A stretch of DNA of 64,000 nt. It comes from Porphyromonadaceae bacterium UBA7207. Its GTDB lineage: Bacteria; Bacteroidota; Bacteroidia; Bacteroidales; Muribaculaceae. The position numbers were made by a program, and so were the translations under genes. Position 1 is the first letter of the stretch; every line of letters starts with the position of its first letter. The DNA lies in the NCBI GenBank assembly GCA_002490635.1, contig DKUJ01000022.1, positions 7,146 through 71,145 of the forward strand, read 5' to 3'. The notes under the pieces are model-generated. The model had not been told where the DNA came from. It saw nothing but the letters and a program-made list of their open reading frames with translations, and searched no databases. This document shows positions 2,702-13,698 of the stretch, piece after piece.

Positions 2702-5329
2702 ATGAAAAAACTCTACACCGCCGTTCTCTTCCTGGCCTGCACGCTCAGTGCCATCGCTGCCGGTGAGAACGTAGTGCGCGAGCACAGGGCCATATGGATG
2801 AGCCCAATGCTTTCGTCCACATGGCCTTCGGGAGAAATCACCGAATCCAACGCGCAGGCACGTCGCGAATCGCTGCGGCAGCGTTTCGCCACCCTGCGTT
2901 CGCAAGGCATCAACACCATCTATTTCCACACCCGCGCACACTGCGACGCCACATATGCTTCTTCCTACGAACCATATGCTTCTTCCGTAGCCGGAAGCCG
3001 CGGCGGAACACCTGCTTTCGACCCGTTCGGCTTCGTGGTGCAGACCGCCCACGAACAGGGCATGGAAGTGTATGCATGGGTAAACCCTCTGCGATATTCC
3101 GCCGGAGGAACCTACGGCAACGGCGACCCGCGGAACTATGAGGTGTCGCATCCCGAATGGCTGCTTCGCTCCCCGGAGCAGATCATTCTCAATCCTGCCA
3201 TCCCGGAAGTGCGCCAGAGGGTGGTGGACATCTGCCGCGAAATCGCCGCCAACTACGACATCGACGGCATGATTTTCGACGACTATTTCTACCACAGCTC
3301 CATAAAACTGGAAATGGACGCCGATTATTACCAGGAATACTGCAATTCAGTGCCGAAAGACCAAAAAGCCATGAGCCAGGAGGAATGGCGCCGCGAGAAT
3401 GTGAATAACGTTGTGCGCTCCGTCCGCCAGGCTGTGATCGAGGAGCGCCCTTATGCTGTGTTCGCCATCGGCCCGGCAGGCCGCATCTCCCCCGACGATA
3501 TCACCGACTACGGCCTCACTCCAGGCCCACACGGCGACATGAACTACACAGGACTGTTCGCCGACCCTATCAAATGGCTGTCCGAAGGCCTGCTGGATTT
3601 CCTCTCGCCACAGATCTACTGGCCGGAATGGTTCGACGATCTCCAGAAATGGTATTCCATAGCCCTTCCCCACTTCAACAGACACCTCTACACCTCGCTG
3701 GACTGCAATAAACTCAAGAATGTGAAGAGCGAGGAATTCCTGCGCGAGATAGATTTCATGCGCTCCCATGTGCGCCCCAACGAAAGCGGTGTGGTCTTCT
3801 TCGACCTCGGCGCCTTCCTGAACTACGGCGAACGCTACCAGGGCTCAAAACGCCTCACATGGGGCGAAATCCTCCACCAGTATACTTTCCCCTACACTGC
3901 CCTCGCTCCGCTCCAGGGATGGCGCGGAATACGCACTGAACACCACACAGGCATGCCGGCACGCAACGGCGATAATCTTGTATGGGATGCACCGGCCTCG
4001 GCAGGCCAGGAAGCCTTACGATATGCCGTGTATGCGCTGCCGGAAGCCATGGATCGCGCCGACTTCGCCTTCCAGCCCGAATATCTCGCCGGAGTGGCAT
4101 ACACAGAGAGCTTCGACATCTCCGCCAACCCGTCGGCTGTGTACGGTGTGGCTGTCTATGACCGCTACGGACGTATGGGCGCCATCCGCTTCGAAGGCTG
4201 CGCCAACCTTGCCGACGGAGCTGTTCCCACGGGCCTCGCACCTGCCGGAGGCAATGCCGCCGACCTCACAGACCTGTCGTGGAACTATTCCGGAAACGCC
4301 CGTTTCGTTGTGGAATTCGCCACCGACGCCTCATTTACCAGCATTGTGGCTACCGGAGAGACAACGGAGAAACGTATTCCTCTGAACCACCTGGCGTCGC
4401 TTGAGCCGGGAACCGAACACCACTGGCGCGTTATCGCCTATGCCGCCGACTGCAAAGCCGCCACAAGTGCCCCCGCTGTTTTCACTCCCTCGCGAGTGGC
4501 CATAACAGCACCCGTGGCCGGAGCAAACGATGTTCCTTTCAATCCCGTTGTCGCCTGGACTCCCTGCGAGAACGGCACAGAATACACACTCGAGATAAGC
4601 ACTACCGAAAACTTCAGCAACGTGGTGTTCACCGCCACTACCGACAAGGCATCGCTCCAGGTGCCCCAGCGCACTCTCATAAGCGGCATGAAGTACTTCG
4701 CACGTGTCACGGCCTCACGTTCCGGCGCCGAATCCAAATCGGCTACCACCATGTTCCTCACTGCCGACCGTAGCGACTACACGGCTCCGGCCTTCGCCAA
4801 TCCCGCAGAAACCGGCACAACATTGAACACCAACAGCATCGTGCGTCTGCAGCAATGGGAGGGCATGACCAACGTAACCATCGAGATTGCCGCTAACCAG
4901 GATTTCCCCTCGCGTTCCATCTACCGAAAGACACTCACCGACTTCGCCACCGAACTGCCCGAACTATCGACCGTGCGAATTTCATCGAAATCACTCGAAG
5001 CCGGCAAGACCTATTATATGCGTAACCGTGGCGGATACCGACTCCAGAATGCCTCGGCGGTGAAATACACACCCTACAGCGATGTGATAACCTTCGTGTA
5101 TTCCGGTGTGGCAGGCGTGGACCAGGCAGAGACCGCAAAAGCTTTTGTCGACGGCAACAATATTCTCCATCTGCCTCTCGAGGCCGCCGTAGAGGTATTC
5201 GACCTCGCAGGACGGCTCGTGCTGGCCTGCGACCCTGCCAACGAGCATTCCCTGCAGGCCATTCCCGCTGGATGCTACATTATCCGCGTGGCGGCACACA
5301 ACATTTCACCCATCAAATGGGTTAGATAA
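2702..5329 (+). CDS. Family 10 glycosyl hydrolase-like (GHL10/DUF187, YddW/DigH-like) enzyme with Fn3/Ig-like repeats and T9SS C-terminal domain
   Basis: Signal peptide; RAIW..., GINTIYFHTRAHCDA.Y.S.YEP, AHEQGMEVYAWVNP, YDIDGMIFDDYFY, DFLSPQIYW motifs; C-terminus VEVFDLAGR...GCYIIRV...KWVR. Confidence 0.85.
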   Translation: MKKLYTAVLFLACTLSAIAAGENVVREHRAIWMSPMLSSTWPSGEITESNAQARRESLRQRFATLRSQGINTIYFHTRAHCDATYASSYEPYASSVAGSRGGTPAFDPFGFVVQTAHEQGMEVYAWVNPLRYSAGGTYGNGDPRNYEVSHPEWLLRSPEQIILNPAIPEVRQRVVDICREIAANYDIDGMIFDDYFYHSSIKLEMDADYYQEYCNSVPKDQKAMSQEEWRRENVNNVVRSVRQAVIEERPYAVFAIGPAGRISPDDITDYGLTPGPHGDMNYTGLFADPIKWLSEGLLDFLSPQIYWPEWFDDLQKWYSIALPHFNRHLYTSLDCNKLKNVKSEEFLREIDFMRSHVRPNESGVVFFDLGAFLNYGERYQGSKRLTWGEILHQYTFPYTALAPLQGWRGIRTEHHTGMPARNGDNLVWDAPASAGQEALRYAVYALPEAMDRADFAFQPEYLAGVAYTESFDISANPSAVYGVAVYDRYGRMGAIRFEGCANLADGAVPTGLAPAGGNAADLTDLSWNYSGNARFVVEFATDASFTSIVATGETTEKRIPLNHLASLEPGTEHHWRVIAYAADCKAATSAPAVFTPSRVAITAPVAGANDVPFNPVVAWTPCENGTEYTLEISTTENFSNVVFTATTDKASLQVPQRTLISGMKYFARVTASRSGAESKSATTMFLTADRSDYTAPAFANPAETGTTLNTNSIVRLQQWEGMTNVTIEIAANQDFPSRSIYRKTLTDFATELPELSTVRISSKSLEAGKTYYMRNRGGYRLQNASAVKYTPYSDVITFVYSGVAGVDQAETAKAFVDGNNILHLPLEAAVEVFDLAGRLVLACDPANEHSLQAIPAGCYIIRVAAHNISPIKWVR

Positions 5330-5837: not shown

Positions 5838-6689
5838 TTACCCTCGGCCTGCCGTAGCTGCGAAATCCGCGGCGATATAGCGCGCAACAGCATCGGTGTA
5901 GTTGGCATCTATGACTTCGTGGGCCGCAGCCTTCACCTGCGGCATGGCATTGCCCACAGCTACCGCAATGTCGGCCACTGCAAACATGGGCAGGTCGTTC
6001 AGATTGTCGCCGAACACCACAATGCGTTCCGCACCCTCGGCCTTGGCGACACGCCGTATGGCGCTGGCTTTCGACACTCCGGGAGCGAGCACTTCAAGAT
6101 TGTAGATATCGCTGTTGAAAATGTCGGGATAGCACGAAACCGAGCATTCCGTGCTATCGCGAACCATTTGTGCAAGGGCTTCGACGGGGCCGCGTTCGCC
6201 CATGGCGAAAAATAGCATGGCGCGGCCTGTGGAACGTTCCGGCACGGGAGTGCCGAGATGGAAGCGTTTCAGCGCCACATGGCGGCGTTCGAGCCAGAAA
6301 CTTTCCTCGGCGCGGTTGAGTGTCTTTCCGGAATGGTAGACATCGAGAGTGCGCCCCTCGGGCGACTGGATGTAGACAAACGGATGCACACCGTGCATGG
6401 CTCCCATATCCAGCAGCAGCCGGCTGTCATCGGCTCCTATGAAACATGAATCGACAAATTCGCCGCGGGTGCGGTTCCAACCGGCGGCACCTGTCATCAC
6501 TATATAATCGACTCCTGTTGCCGCATGTGCCATCAACGGAACCACGGTGGCCGGAGTGCGCGCCGTAGCCACGGTTATCAGGGCACCTCGGGCGCTGAGT
6601 TCTGTAATCAGTTCAGCGCTGCGCTGGCTCACCCGGCTGTCGCTGCCGAGCAGCGTGCCGTCGAGGTCGCTTACATAGAGTGTTTTCAT
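5838..6689 (-). CDS. HAD-superfamily Cof-type hydrolase
   Basis: Motifs DLDGTLL, TAR, GVSKA, FGDNLND. Start placed at the ATG overlapping the upstream stop (ATGA). Confidence 0.9.
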   Translation of the reverse strand: MKTLYVSDLDGTLLGSDSRVSQRSAELITELSARGALITVATARTPATVVPLMAHAATGVDYIVMTGAAGWNRTRGEFVDSCFIGADDSRLLLDMGAMHGVHPFVYIQSPEGRTLDVYHSGKTLNRAEESFWLERRHVALKRFHLGTPVPERSTGRAMLFFAMGERGPVEALAQMVRDSTECSVSCYPDIFNSDIYNLEVLAPGVSKASAIRRVAKAEGAERIVVFGDNLNDLPMFAVADIAVAVGNAMPQVKAAAHEVIDANYTDAVARYIAADFAATAGRG

Positions 6690-9211: not shown

Positions 9212-9739
9212 TCACCAGTCGCCCAGGGTGGAGTTGAAAATAAGATCTACAAGCTCCTTGCATATCTCCTGACAGAGACCGTCCTGCACGTCGGTGAGCA
9301 TCTCGCTGCTGGTGAAGTCCCGGTAGGCGCTGAATGTCTGGTCGAAGTCCTTGCCGTCGACTTTGGTATCTGTGTATTTCACGCGCACCGATATGGTGAG
9401 ACGTGTCATGGAGCCGTAGCCGTCTTCTGTCACCGCCTGCGGTGTGAGGTTGTAGCCGGTGATTTCGCCTTCAAGCCGGAGGTCGGAAAGGCCGTCGACA
9501 GTCTGCAGGCGTGTGTTGCGGGTTATGTAGTTCTGCAGCTCGTTCTCGAACATAGGCTGCAGGGGCGGATACACCAGTGCCGCACGAATCGGGAACTCGC
9601 TCACGGATATCGTGCGATATACATTGTAGTCGATGGATGTGCCGTTCGGCGTAAACCTTATCTTGCAGGCTCCCGCAACAACGAGAACACACAGCATTAC
9701 AAGCGCCGGCAACGTCCGGGAGTATTTATTCGAGTCCAT
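9212..9739 (-). CDS. lptE: LPS assembly lipoprotein LptE family
   Basis: Lipobox AGA-C; LRLEGEITGY...TRLTISVRVKY...LVDLIFNSTLGDW. Confidence 0.85.
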   Translation of the reverse strand: MDSNKYSRTLPALVMLCVLVVAGACKIRFTPNGTSIDYNVYRTISVSEFPIRAALVYPPLQPMFENELQNYITRNTRLQTVDGLSDLRLEGEITGYNLTPQAVTEDGYGSMTRLTISVRVKYTDTKVDGKDFDQTFSAYRDFTSSEMLTDVQDGLCQEICKELVDLIFNSTLGDW

Positions 9740-10985
9740 ATTCTTTTATTTTGCGGTATAGAGTGCGTTCCGATATCTGGAGTTCCGCGGCTGCCGCCTT
9801 ACGCTTTCCTTCGTTGCGCCGCAGAGAATCCTCTATTGCCTGTTTCTCCGTCTGCTGCATTGTGGCCGGAACGCTGCTTTCTATAGTCTCCACTTCCTCG
9901 CACACCACATCGGCACAGCTGTTGCCTATATCCTTCTCTTTTTTGTCCAATACAATGAGAGCCTTGGCCGTGTTTCCTTTTTTGTCTTCAGGGGCTACCG
10001 ACTGTTCGCTGAGCATGCGGTTGGCGGTCTCGGCATGCGGATGGCTGTCGCTGCGGCGCTGAAGCTCATCGACACGCCGCTGGAGATTCAGAATCATTCC
10101 CAGAAGCATGTCGCGCTCGCGGCTGTAGCTGTGTATGCTGTCGTCGTCGCGTGTGGCCGGCATGTATGTCTGCGATGCCGCCGGCAACGCCTCTTCCACG
10201 GTATCGGCCTCTACACGGCTTCCGGCATGGAAAAGGGCAATCTGGTCGATGATATTCTTAAGCTGTCGCACATTTCCCGGCCAGCGGTAGCGGCGCAGTA
10301 AAGCCATTGCCTCCGGCGAATAGCTCACAGGGTCCACGCGGTAGCGTTCGGCAAAATCGCTGCTGAACTTGTAGGCAAGCAGGTCTATGTCGGCACCGCG
10401 TTCGCGAAGCGGAGGCACAACTATCATCACTGTCGATAACCTGTAGAAAAGGTCTTCGCGGAACCGGCCCTCGGATATGGCTTTCGGAAGATCCACATTC
10501 GTTGCCGCCACAATCCTTACGTTTGTGCGTCGCACCTCAGAAGAGCCTACTCTGAGATACTGGCCGCTTTCGAGCACACGAAGCAGTCGGGCCTGCGTGG
10601 TAAGCGGCAACTCTGCAACCTCGTCGAGAAAGATTGTGCCACCGTCGGCTTCCTCGAAATATCCCTTGCGGGAATCGACAGCACCGGTGAAAGCGCCCTT
10701 CTCATGGCCGAAAAGTTCGGAGTCGATGGTGCCCTCTGGAATGGCACCACAGTTCACTGCTATATATTTTCCATGCTTGCGCGAACTGAAGGCATGGATG
10801 ATTTGCGGAAAGAATTCCTTGCCGGTGCCACTTTCGCCGCACACAAGCACCGACAGGTCGATTGGCGCCACCCTCACAGCCCTCTCCAGAGCTGCTGTGA
10901 GAGCCGGAGCATTGCCGACAATTCCGAAGCGCTGGCGGGCCTGCTGCACCGCAGCCGACGGACGGTTGGTTTTCTCTGTCATCAT
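9726..10985 (-). CDS. Sigma-54-dependent Fis-family activator lacking an N-terminal receiver domain
   Basis: Walker A GESGTGKE, GAFTGA loop, FLDEV, FREDLFYRL, WPGNVRQL, C-terminal HTH (ISERTLYRKIKEY). Confidence 0.95.
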   Translation of the reverse strand: MMTEKTNRPSAAVQQARQRFGIVGNAPALTAALERAVRVAPIDLSVLVCGESGTGKEFFPQIIHAFSSRKHGKYIAVNCGAIPEGTIDSELFGHEKGAFTGAVDSRKGYFEEADGGTIFLDEVAELPLTTQARLLRVLESGQYLRVGSSEVRRTNVRIVAATNVDLPKAISEGRFREDLFYRLSTVMIVVPPLRERGADIDLLAYKFSSDFAERYRVDPVSYSPEAMALLRRYRWPGNVRQLKNIIDQIALFHAGSRVEADTVEEALPAASQTYMPATRDDDSIHSYSRERDMLLGMILNLQRRVDELQRRSDSHPHAETANRMLSEQSVAPEDKKGNTAKALIVLDKKEKDIGNSCADVVCEEVETIESSVPATMQQTEKQAIEDSLRRNEGKRKAAAAELQISERTLYRKIKEYGLE

Positions 10986-10989
10986 AGTG

Positions 10990-10997
10990 CAAAGATA
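10990..10997 (-). promoter_or_regulatory. Bacteroidota -7 promoter element (TATCTTTG) for sigma54-activator operon
   Basis: Exact TAnnTTTG match; the ATG begins 5 nt downstream. Confidence 0.7.
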
Positions 10998-11044
10998 CTA
11001 TTTTTTCGCCGTTCGCTGCTGTTGTTCCAGCCTGGACCTTGTGG

Positions 11045-11990
11045 TTCTGAACATGCTTTTATTCCTGTTATCTCTCCAATCATAGAAAATATAATACAAA
11101 GGAATAATAATAATAGCTGTCGATATGTATGAAATCCCGTAGGATACGATATCCGCTCATTGCTTATAAAAGACCTGTTTATTATTTTACACACTTTATC
11201 TACATTATATATTGCAGATATATAATAGATTAAGCATGTTATAAACACTATGTTGATAACGCAGATATCCTGTTGTTTGATAACGTCAAGCGTTGACAGT
11301 CCGTCTGATTGTGGTCTATAAGCAGGAAAATAACATTGATATCCATACAATAAAAAGACGACCGGAAACCTTGACTTTACAGAAACAGTGCGGCTTAATA
11401 AATGACGGCGGGATTCCAAAGTATATCTACCGAGAATTTGTCGCGTCCTTATTGACACCGGTATCATAGCCGGCCATAGCTTATGGTACGATTAGAAACC
11501 GGCGGAGATTTCTTTTCTATTCTTCCTTCATCGGGTTTCTGTCGACAGTTCCGGGTTTTCAACATGCCTTTATTATTATAGTCTTCTTTGTTTAAAAAAA
11601 ATTATTTTGAAAGAAAGACACAGGAAGAATAATAATGGCTGTTGATATGTGCGATAACTTTTTTGCTGTTTCCTTGACTTTATGGGTTATTGATGTCCGG
11701 GTTATGAATTTGCACACTTTATTGACATGCTATATTGCAGATATAATGTGTGTTGGATGTGTTATCTACATAGTGTTGATAATGTTGTGTTTTGATAATT
11801 TGATAACTTCAGGCGTTGATAAACCTATAGATTACGGTCTGTTCCGGTAGATAACCGCATTGATATCTATGTGAGAAAAAGAACAGCCATAGACTTGACT
11901 TTTCCGAAATTGTACGGCTTAGCACATAATTGTGCAATTTCAAAATATAGTTTTCAGTAACTTATTCCGGCATTATCAACAGCGGTTGTC
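11045..11990. repeat. Diverged tandem direct repeat, two units offset 523-524 bp (about 11045-11465 and 11556-11990)
   Basis: Co-linear anchors: ACACTTTAT 11191/11714; TATATTGCAGATATA 11208/11731; TGTTGATAA 11251/11774; TTTGATAAC 11276/11799; CATTGATATC 11334/11858; CTTGACTTT 11370/11894; CGGCTTA 11391/11915. Confidence 0.9.
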
Positions 11991-11995
11991 AATAA
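11045..11995. other. Candidate chromosomal replication origin (oriC): AT-rich region with DnaA-box-like cluster and DnaA-trio-like runs
   Basis: TTATCAACA at 11251(rc), 11774(rc), 11973; TTATCTACA at 11196, 11762; TTATTGACA at 11449, 11719, 11987(rc); further variants at 11118, 11556, 11640, 11814, 11846; (TAT)n/(ATA)n runs beside boxes; no credible CDS. Confidence 0.7.
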
Positions 11996-12058
11996 GTGTC
12001 AGTGAGATTTTCTCCGTTTAAAACGGACAAGATCTGTCTCACTCGGTGGTATGTAAAT

Positions 12059-12095
12059 AAAAAAGGCTGCACCGTGAATATACGGCACAGCCTTT
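12059..12095 (-). terminator. Terminator of the T9SS protein gene
   Basis: AAAGGCTG..CCGT/ACGG..CAGCCTTT stem, with a T6 tail on the minus strand. Confidence 0.75.
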
Positions 12096-12117
12096 GATGT
12101 ATCAGCGGAGGTATAGC

Positions 12118-13698
12118 TTAGCGAACGTAAACTTTGGTAACGTTGCTGCCCTGGCGGCGGATATAGATGCCGGCTTCGGGGTTGGCTACGCGCACGCCCT
12201 GGAGATTGTAGAATTCAACGGGAGCTTCATTGTCGACAGCTACGGATTCGAGGCCGCTGCCTTTTTTCACGAAGAGTGTGGGCAGGAGAACTTCAGCGGC
12301 ATTTACGCTGGGAGCGATGTTGTTGTACCATGTACCTTCAGCACCTTTGGTAACGCCTACCAGACCGGTGTTGCCTTCGGCGGTGAGGGAGATGGAAGCT
12401 TTGCCGGCGGTGAAGCTGATTGTCCAGATGCAAAGGGGGCTTACTTCGGTGTAGAGCTGGAAGGAAGTGGTGTGGGTGCCGTCGAAGCCGAGATAGCGGC
12501 CATAGGAGTCCTTCATGGTGTATCCTTCGCCTTCGGCTTTGATGGTGATGGCGTTCTTGACATCGCTGGTGAGTTCGCCGTTGGTGATGGTAACGTCGGT
12601 GAGGCTGAGGCGGCCGAATGTGGAGCTTTCGGAGATAACGGTGCCGAGCTTGTCGTTGGCTACCATTACATATTCGGCACCGGAAGCGATGGCGGCGGTT
12701 TCAACGAAGATAGCTTCGTTTACCGGAGGAATAACCACTTCGCCCTGGAGTTTGAAGAGCTCGGGTTTGGCGGCATTCTCGGGGAGCTCTTCGGGCAGGT
12801 AGCATCCGAAGGAACCGAAAGCGGGATCCTGATAGATGGAATGGCCGGTAGCGATGTTGGTGATGGTGGCCACGCCGGCATCGAAGCTTACAGTCCATAC
12901 GCGGTTGTCCGCGCTGTCGTCGGTGGTGTCGAATGTCTTGTATCCGGTTTTGGCACCAAGCATTTTTCCCTGTGCGGTCTCGATGGTGTAGCCACCCTGT
13001 ACGGCAGTGAATTTAAGGGCATAGGAAGCGTCGCCTGCAAAAGAGGTGGCTGTTGCGCCGGCGGGGAGATTGGTGGAGCTCATGTAGCCGTAGTTTTTCT
13101 CAAAGAGCATGTTGTACATGCCACCTGCTACGAATACATAGCTCTGGCCGCTTTCAACGGCTGTTGCCTTGAAGTAGTTGGGTTCGGCAGGCTCGGGGGG
13201 AGTGATTCCGCCAAGTTCGCCGCCGCCAACGATATTCATGCTGGTGAAGCAGAACTGGCCGGCTTTGGATTCACCATCGGTACCGTATGTTGCCTTTTCG
13301 CCCACGGTGAAGGTAACTTCAGCGGCGTTGCCGGTCCAGGTAACAGTCCAGTCGCCTTCGGCAGGATTGCTGATGGTAACGTTGCCGTTGCTGGCGGTAA
13401 TGTCGGTGAGGCGTTTCTTGCCCTGCTTGGAAATGTTGAACACCATGGATGTGATGTCGGCACCGCTGGTAACGGTGAGGGTGTTCTTGGCATAGAGGCG
13501 CAGGTCCTTGTTGTTTGCGTTGTATGCAGGCTTTGTGGTGCCGCCATTCTGGTCGGCAACGAACTTGAAGTCGGTACCTGCGGTGAACTCGGTAGGATTG
13601 GCACCCAGCTCGAGGTCGGCGAATGTCACTGTGGTGTCGGCCAGTGCGGAACCTGCACACAGCAGGCCGGCAGCCATGCTTAGTAAAAGTTTTTTCAT
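12118..13698 (-). CDS. Secreted protein with two internal repeat domains and T9SS C-terminal sorting domain
   Basis: Signal peptide MKKLLLSMAAGLLCAGSALA; C-terminus VEFYNLQGVRVANPEAGIYIRRQGSNVTKVYVR; repeats starting YFKATAVESGQSYVFVA and IFVETAAIASGAEYVMVA. Confidence 0.9.
   Translation of the reverse strand: MKKLLLSMAAGLLCAGSALADTTVTFADLELGANPTEFTAGTDFKFVADQNGGTTKPAYNANNKDLRLYAKNTLTVTSGADITSMVFNISKQGKKRLTDITASNGNVTISNPAEGDWTVTWTGNAAEVTFTVGEKATYGTDGESKAGQFCFTSMNIVGGGELGGITPPEPAEPNYFKATAVESGQSYVFVAGGMYNMLFEKNYGYMSSTNLPAGATATSFAGDASYALKFTAVQGGYTIETAQGKMLGAKTGYKTFDTTDDSADNRVWTVSFDAGVATITNIATGHSIYQDPAFGSFGCYLPEELPENAAKPELFKLQGEVVIPPVNEAIFVETAAIASGAEYVMVANDKLGTVISESSTFGRLSLTDVTITNGELTSDVKNAITIKAEGEGYTMKDSYGRYLGFDGTHTTSFQLYTEVSPLCIWTISFTAGKASISLTAEGNTGLVGVTKGAEGTWYNNIAPSVNAAEVLLPTLFVKKGSGLESVAVDNEAPVEFYNLQGVRVANPEAGIYIRRQGSNVTKVYVR

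Follow-up and report, generated by a model that had tools for sequence, protein, structure and literature searches.

Does the AT-rich intergenic region described here hold the chromosomal replication origin (oriC) of the Porphyromonadaceae bacterium UBA7207, a member of the Muribaculaceae, and if so, is its duplex engaged by DnaA from one end of the bubble or from both? The question arises from an earlier reading of the window, that is, the whole stretch of 64 000 nucleotides that was analysed. In that original prediction, each of two repeated units carried a pair of inward-facing cassettes, composed of a DnaA box, a short GC spacer and DnaA-trios, on either side of an AT-rich core, an arrangement that would let DnaA filaments engage both strands of one bubble. 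All the strings on which the prediction drew were found where it had placed them.

Two diverged tandem units with a period of ~523 bp make up the intergenic region (Table 1). It is flanked on the left by a sigma-54-dependent activator gene (9726-10985, minus strand), identified through Pfam, and on the right by a 526-aa open reading frame (12118-13698, minus strand) with no Pfam match. A GC-rich inverted repeat at 12062-12095 (AAAGGCTGCACCGT / ACGGCACAGCCTTT) is followed by a T-run on the minus strand, and this hairpin is likely to be the intrinsic terminator of the 526-aa gene, placed at the edge of the origin region. An Rfam scan of 10500-12600 returned nothing relevant. Further into the window, ~23 kb of housekeeping genes (17951-40729; prfA, pyrF, hemD and others) all lie on the minus strand and are transcribed towards the origin; because genes diverge from the origin in relatives, this block looks like a local inversion or rearrangement beside oriC.

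Table 1. Features of the putative origin region, in coordinates of the window.
Feature	Position	Strand	Description
Putative oriC intergenic region	10986-12117	.	1132 bp, 36.6% GC against ~56% GC for the genome
Unit 1, decaying paralogue	11038-11266	+	R1 107.5 bits (window search)
Unit 1 left box remnant	11045-11053	+	TTCTGAACA; conserved C5 replaced by G
Unit 1 right cassette	11099-11126	-	Box ATATCGACA at 11118-11126 (quoted plus-strand string TGTCGATAT)
Unit 2, full-featured copy	11550-11792	+	R1 156.8 bits (window search)
Left DnaA box	11556-11564	+	TTTTCAACA, pointing right into the core
Left C-rich spacer	11565-11568	+	TGCC
Left T-rich tract	11569-11593	+	TTTATTATTATAG..., with a 5-nt spacer leading into (TTA)3; minus strand A-rich
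AT-rich core	11594-11619	.	A8 run at 11594-11601, then TTATTTTG
Right DnaA-trios	11621-11635	+	3'->5' from the box: AAT AAT AAG AAG GAC
Right 4-nt spacer	11636-11639	+	3'-CGGT-5' on the trio strand
Right proximal DnaA box	11640-11648	-	ATATCAACA on the minus strand; plus-strand letters TGTTGATAT
Abutting co-oriented half-box	11649-11657	-	TTATCGCAC; conservation limited to the GTTATC half
Unit 2 DnaA-box array	11660-11860	.	Boxes at 11719(+), 11762(+), 11774(-), 11790(-), 11814(-) and 11846(-)

The intergenic region was compared with the rest of the genome for its content of DnaA boxes. Matches to TTATCNACA with at most one mismatch occur in it at 16 per kb, against a genome mean of ~1 and 6 in the next-best stretch, and dinucleotide shuffles of the region averaged 1.8 such boxes and never exceeded 8. 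It is the sole intergenic DnaA-box cluster of the genome and also the densest. Other DnaA-box candidates, on contigs C23 and C28, were rejected since their exact TTATCCACA sites fall inside genes. The dnaA gene itself sits on a different contig (C26) from the candidate origin, and no DnaA boxes were found upstream of it.

Conservation was followed with R1, a sequence-only model of one unit built from alignment A3. Of 60 genomes of the genus, 54 carry a full-length match to R1, as do 32 of the 35 Muribaculaceae genera, at one copy per genome; the exceptions, each with two copies, are the UBA7207 genome and L113. A search of eight named genomes gave one full-length match, in a member of the sister family (G038, E = 1e-7). 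In unit 2, A and T make up nearly all of 11569-11635, and over the entire R1 module (11550-11792) the GC content is 31%.

oriC is conventionally recognized by a minimum in GC skew, flanked by diverging genes, at a cluster of DnaA boxes that is conserved and present once. The module occupies such a position in two relatives that have long contigs. In G105, a member of the same family with a 288-kb contig, GC skew is negative in each of the eight 10-kb bins to the left of the module (-0.09 to -0.18) and positive in each of the eight to its right (+0.04 to +0.12), and the long open reading frames lie on the minus strand on the left (9 of 9) and mostly on the plus strand on the right (10 of 14). 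In G038, from the sister family, the skew along a 1.09-Mb contig averages -0.057 over the 100 kb to the left and +0.074 over the 80 kb to the right, with genes mainly on the minus strand on the left and, past the first 20 kb, mainly on the plus strand on the right. On the UBA7207 contig, the best change-point in skew falls exactly at the site (-0.065 to +0.017), as one of several change-points and with a borderline permutation p of ~0.05. Coding strands in this genome are C-rich, with a GC skew of -0.06 overall and -0.27 at third codon positions, and the strand richer in genes was the C-skewed strand in 16 of 17 informative contigs. Naive origin calls from GC skew are therefore unreliable in the UBA7207 assembly, where coding-strand skew and expression effects (a ribosomal-protein block on C23) swamp the replication signal. 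The orientation of tRNA genes in UBA7207 was uninformative for locating the origin.

Because a single-copy, conserved module lies at a minus-to-plus skew switch with divergent genes in two relatives, the intergenic region is the predicted chromosomal replication origin of UBA7207. The assignment of the region as an origin had been made from its letters alone and is borne out by the box cluster, the one-copy conservation and the skew switch in G105 and G038. A dif-like site with an exact XerD-arm 11-mer, TTGTTCTATAA-TCAGTG-TTATGTTAAAT, was located at 14004-14031 of contig C26 in the UBA7207 genome (G000). It is intergenic, in a 3-kb low-GC stretch devoid of confident genes and ~61 kb from dnaA on the same contig, and the GC skew across it passes weakly from plus to minus; its position on the contig of dnaA, away from the module, fits an origin that does not adjoin dnaA. 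Assemblies of relatives often end 0-2 kb from the module (G019:C6:724, G011:C11:35 and G062:C162:7, with G008:C44 and G021:C63 near ends). A search of 17 contig ends, ~3-14 kb from the module, with Rfam models found no rRNA or tRNA genes, and these breaks could stem from rearrangement at the strain level, from duplication or from poor coverage where the DNA is AT-rich.

We then asked how the cassettes of unit 2 relate to the basal unwinding system (BUS). Tables S1 and S2 of PMC8287927 print the trio strand from 3' to 5', the B. subtilis entry, for example, reading AATAGGTGT-TTAGGTGT-CCGG-GATGAT..., and the box strand therefore reads 5'-TTATCCACA-spacer-(NTN)n-3'. By the rule drawn from these tables, both cassettes of unit 2 have the BUS orientation and face inwards, as originally proposed. 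The right box (ATATCAACA) has two mismatches to TTATCCACA, the most that a BUS box may have, and the half-box that abuts it lies in the block gATAACTTT, which is nearly invariant in all alignments. When 83 distinct related sequences were anchored on the box, T was present at +6, +9, +12, +15 and +18 of the box strand in 94, 82, 92, 87 and 75% respectively; T at +5, +8 and +11 was a little less conserved, and +7, +10, +13 and +16 were free. The period-3 power was 0.49 in a set of 47 sequences, and the periodicity was found again in the 83-sequence profile. Substitutions in the trios of relatives retain the central A (AAC AAC AAT AAC, or AAT GAT AAG GAG, for instance). The right spacer reads N-C-C-A on the box strand, with the two C residues in 73% and 80% and the A in 48% of the 83 sequences, and the spacers listed in Table S2 of PMC8287927 include CCGG, CGTG and GGG. 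With a box and a half-box, a spacer of ~4 bp (where up to 16 is allowed), five trios (where at least three are needed) and all of these on the correct strand, the right cassette is, by every sequence criterion, a canonical predicted BUS. Its earlier designation as such thus holds, the orientation agreeing with the rule from PMC8287927 and the five trios being conserved with a period of three.

The BUS of B. subtilis incC and H. pylori oriC2 (Richardson 2016/2019; Pelliciari 2021, 2023) is matched part for part by the right cassette, in order as well as in orientation. Shared are the co-oriented boxes, a 4-nt spacer containing GG, at least five trios with an invariant central A, and AT-rich DNA beyond; the B. 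subtilis spacer, 3'-CCGG-5', has the same length and GG pair as the 3'-CGGT-5' found here. The right cassette differs in that the proximal box is strong and the distal one only a half-box, and in that the trios are 3'-AAT-5' rather than 3'-GAT-5'. A further difference is the conserved, phased inverted box with its own spacer that closes the far side of the AT-rich DNA.

This far side, the left cassette, has a box in the correct BUS orientation with two mismatches to TTATCCACA. The family consensus of the left box is TT[T/A/G]TC[A/G]ACA, which is present with at most one mismatch in 83 of 97 distinct sequences, a set that includes 51 matches found with a search pattern from which the left box had been omitted. 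Its commonest form, with 35 cases, is the TTTTCAACA of UBA7207, and the P. gingivalis entry in Table S1 of PMC8287927 has the same box. In the left spacer, 92% of the 83 sequences have C at +3 and 77% have A at +4, giving the N-Y-C-A form also seen on the right. It is followed by T at 57-96% per position from +5 to +18, in a tract extending over about 15-20 nt. No 3-nt periodicity was detected in this tract (power of 0.002 in the 47 sequences), which was aperiodic again in the 83-sequence profile, and no second DnaA box is present on the left side. The left tract of UBA7207 does satisfy the loose (NAN)3 rule as given in PMC8287927. Set against the BUS, the left cassette thus has the box, the spacer and the adjacent AT-rich DNA, and lacks trios in a fixed register. 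The original prediction had been made to depend on conservation of the (TAT)n runs in orthologous regions; the left run has no counterpart as a repeat in relatives, whose tract is T-rich and aperiodic (0.002 against 0.49 on the right), and for want of a 3-nt periodicity on the left, the notion of trios on both sides is unsupported. The left cassette nevertheless clearly appears to be a selected, cooperating element. In the homologous module of the sister family (L224:1501-1722, equivalent to G038:C3:356485-356706), from a genome with 36% GC, the right trios are ATGATGATG as written on the trio strand, and the left tract, ATT ATA CTA TTA, is more trio-like than its counterparts in most Muribaculaceae.

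Between the two cassettes lies the core, the presumed first-melting segment, in which the block AaAAAAATtTtt is conserved in a 31-sequence alignment. Of the 83 sequences, 82 have a T-rich plus strand in the left half of the module and 71 an A-rich one in the right half. This flip of strand asymmetry across the core gives the module a two-fold pseudo-symmetry, centred on a conserved A-run/T-run; a significant reverse-strand self-match of R1 model positions ~7-105 was found in ~30 genomes. The gap between the two boxes is trimodal, with values of 62-66, 72-77 and 81-86 nt and single cases at 91 and 94, whereas gaps of 70-71, 78-80 and 87-90 nt are absent from the set. Measured from centre to centre, these classes correspond to ~7, 8 or 9 helical turns, and they recur within a genus and between genera. 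At a 10-bp period, the Rayleigh R was 0.55, a statistic that ignores shared ancestry and so inflates the nominal p; with unique gap values in a 44-sequence set, p was ~0.03-0.05. Steps of ~10 bp in the spacing argue that the two sides act together. As a measure of chance, the BUS search rule set out in PMC8287927 gave 7 matches in the region against 1.6 in dinucleotide shuffles. Exactly one convergent pair was found under this rule, 11556/11640; such a pair arose in 2.75% of shuffles under the loose rule and in 0 of 400 when the spacer was held to at most 5 nt. Since the arrangement is kept in 83 distinct related sequences, it is far beyond chance, and this conservation carries more weight than the shuffles. 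The expectation that the same symmetry would be seen in other origins is thus borne out across the Muribaculaceae for the inverted box, the spacer and the strand flip, and fails for the register of the left trios.

Unit 1 departs from this pattern. Its left box, TTCTGAACA, has three mismatches to TTATCCACA and breaks the near-invariant C5. On the right, the trios form a good run (C-GAT AAT AAT AAT AAG on the plus strand, 3'->5' from the box), and the half-box is lost (GGATTTCATAC). Missing from unit 1 as a whole are the left-box C, the half-box, the TTGC block and, through a deletion of 11 nt, the central A-run. Of the 77 columns with a conservation of at least 85% among the 29 other species, unit 1 matches 58, the lowest of 31 sequences, and unit 2 matches 72. 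The full predicted pair of cassettes is restricted to unit 2, and unit 1 is, as judged from these losses, a tandem copy in decay, in which a right box and trios survive. Convergent cassettes had been described in each unit; this stands for unit 2 and, in unit 1, for the right box and trios, the left box there being degenerate and the core devoid of its A-run. The Muribaculaceae assembly MGBC112867 (L113) has two full-length modules, at 3693-3928(-) and 6322-6551(+), inverted and 2.4 kb apart, so that duplication of the module recurs, and additional, incomplete copies of the box-array half lie beside the main copy in several other genomes.

Beyond the half-box, the array of unit 2 contains a convergent pair of boxes, TTATCTACA-TAG-TGTTGATAA, and conserved blocks that are not DnaA boxes, CTTG[A/C] and GGGTTATTGA. 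A strongly conserved (C)TTGC...tGGGTTATTGA, which is not a DnaA box, follows the half-box at 11660-11710 (alignment A4), and TGCAAAGTT, again not a DnaA box, follows the convergent pair at 11795-11800 in many species. Such conserved non-box blocks may bind another origin factor.

Taken as a whole, unit 2 is probably the duplex-opening module of oriC, in which a right-hand BUS would cooperate across the bubble with a phased, inverted DnaA anchor on the left. DnaA binding, melting and filament polarity at the module are what we infer from its sequence. DnaA would occupy the right box and half-box on the minus strand, next to the GG-containing spacer and the five plus-strand trios, and from this BUS a DnaA-ATP filament would be threaded leftwards into the AT-rich core. 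The left side would close the core with its single inverted box, C-rich spacer and oligo-T tract, ~7, 8 or 9 turns from the right box. There, the box would serve as a DnaA anchor facing the opposite strand, for capture of the second strand or placement of the second helicase. The left side would not equal the right as a trio array: a DnaA filament could bind its A-rich strand, which has no trio register, and given no trio periodicity and no second box, the left tract may load no filament at all. The UBA7207 genome encodes DciA, which in Bacteroidetes is the minimal single-domain form (bioRxiv 10.1101/2022.01.24.477630), and no DnaD/DnaB_2 protein was found in it. With DciA alone and no DnaD/DnaB_2, a second-strand function would fall to DnaA or some other factor, and since DnaD reads the strand opposite the trios in B. 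subtilis and is absent here, a solution based on DnaA is plausible. The proposal that inward-facing cassettes engage the core thus retains its orientation, its C-rich spacer, a T-rich tract on the correct strand and the phasing, and loses the left trios, a second left box and the left cassette of unit 1.

How much of the left side takes part in opening the duplex is the point on which other readings of the module diverge. The DnaA-dependent step could be wholly one-sided, DnaA being loaded by the right cassette alone, with the left box delimiting the bubble or regulating it and the left T-rich tract forming the distal part of the trio-bearing plus strand, in the manner of the E. coli 13-mers. 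In E. coli, T-rich TT[A/G]T(T) 13-mers lie beyond the R1-proximal trios. That the E. coli trio strand runs on into T-rich repeats (Table S2 of PMC8287927, together with the known layout of oriC) favours this reading, as does the aperiodic left tract; a conserved C-rich spacer and a distance quantised at ~10 bp are, however, unexpected for a mere boundary, and strand asymmetry flips symmetrically across the core. We therefore hold it to be a tentative possibility, on the unlikely side. At the other extreme, the module could be a fully symmetric double BUS, with DnaA-ATP filaments on each A-rich strand converging on the core and holding both strands. Box orientation, a C-rich spacer of 3-4 nt and the A-rich strand are correct on both sides, the spacing is helically phased, no DnaD is present to deal with the second strand, and the left tracts of UBA7207, whose (TTA)3 passes the published rule, and of G038 (ATT ATA CTA TTA) would suit such a design. 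The loose (NAN)3 rule is, however, satisfied by almost any A-rich run, the left side has a single box, and its tract shows none of the 3-nt periodic conservation that is strong on the right, all of which makes a second complete BUS a doubtful proposition.

Two further explanations would remove the paired cassettes, or the origin, altogether. The quasi-palindrome could be a hairpin or cruciform, whether extruded DNA or an RNA stem, with no paired protein-binding cassettes, and as single-stranded DNA unit 2 does fold to -15.8 kcal/mol (z = -5.0), with z of -3.6 and -2.4 in two relatives. Six other relatives, however, gave z from -0.02 to -1.9 and unit 1 gave +0.25, pairing outside the two boxes is not conserved, so that the palindromy resides mainly in the boxes, and a stem could not have 3-nt periodicity in one arm alone, as is seen here; no Rfam family matched. 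On the folding of unit 2, unit 1 and eight relatives, a hairpin was rejected as the main explanation and is highly improbable. Alternatively, the locus could be a set of DnaA boxes outside the origin, such as a titration or reactivation site of the datA/DARS kind, or an element associated with the terminus. The location of dnaA elsewhere, the genes to the right that point towards the site and the weak skew evidence in the UBA7207 genome would all be compatible with this, but a homologous module at a minus-to-plus skew switch with divergent genes in two relatives, the presence of a trio array with an AT-rich core, single-copy conservation throughout the family and a dif-like site on another contig render it barely credible. 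The reading that we prefer remains the right-hand BUS with a phased, inverted box acting across the core of a predicted oriC.

To our knowledge, the BUS papers describe no inverted box on the far side of the AT-rich DNA. Within the range of our term searches and in the methods sections of those papers, there was no mention of one. Literature text searches, with their incomplete coverage, likewise brought up neither a phased, inverted box at the far side of a duplex-unwinding element (DUE) nor experimental work on oriC in the Bacteroidales. Bioinformatic predictions of BUS elements do exist for Bacteroidetes, as listed in Table S1 of PMC8287927. Opposed DnaA sites do occur in E. coli oriC, where Left and Right DnaA subcomplexes face each other (R1 faces R4) and depend on helical phasing, and where both are considered in PMC12818906 to assist in loading the two helicases. 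The E. coli subcomplexes share one side of the DUE, whereas here the opposed boxes bracket it. Archaeal origins have inverted ORB or mini-ORB elements, bound by Orc1/Cdc6, that flank the DUE with two-fold symmetry for the loading of two helicases. Initiator sites of opposite polarity thus bracket an AT-rich element in both cases, while the protein and the motifs differ, making this an analogy and not a homology. A dedicated feature for the strand that is not bound by the DnaA filament is also known from B. subtilis, in the form of the DnaD recognition element (DRE), which lies opposite the DnaA-trios and is read by DnaD (PMC10201434; review PMC13220808). The left side of the present module may be likened to it, with the difference that the DRE is read by DnaD and the UBA7207 genome has DciA without DnaD/DnaB_2.

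Capture of the second strand and placement of the second helicase are open questions for bacterial origins, especially in phyla that lack DnaC/DnaI and DnaD and have DciA alone. A speculative extension, which we consider improbable as it stands, is that the Muribaculaceae, and perhaps other Bacteroidales, have a two-fold symmetric core at which DnaA on two phased, inward-facing boxes engages both A-rich strands. Were this true, a two-sided DnaA core would replace the DnaD/DRE system of the Firmicutes in bacteria with minimal DciA alone and would be the bacterial counterpart of the archaeal inverted-ORB design. A core found throughout the family, with a predicted BUS on one side and a phased inverted box on the other, offers a mutable design in which DnaA may act from both ends of the bubble. 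For the Muribaculaceae, a major and mostly uncultured gut family, the module provides a usable signature of oriC, of value where the origin does not lie beside dnaA and where GC skew is unreliable in fragmented assemblies.
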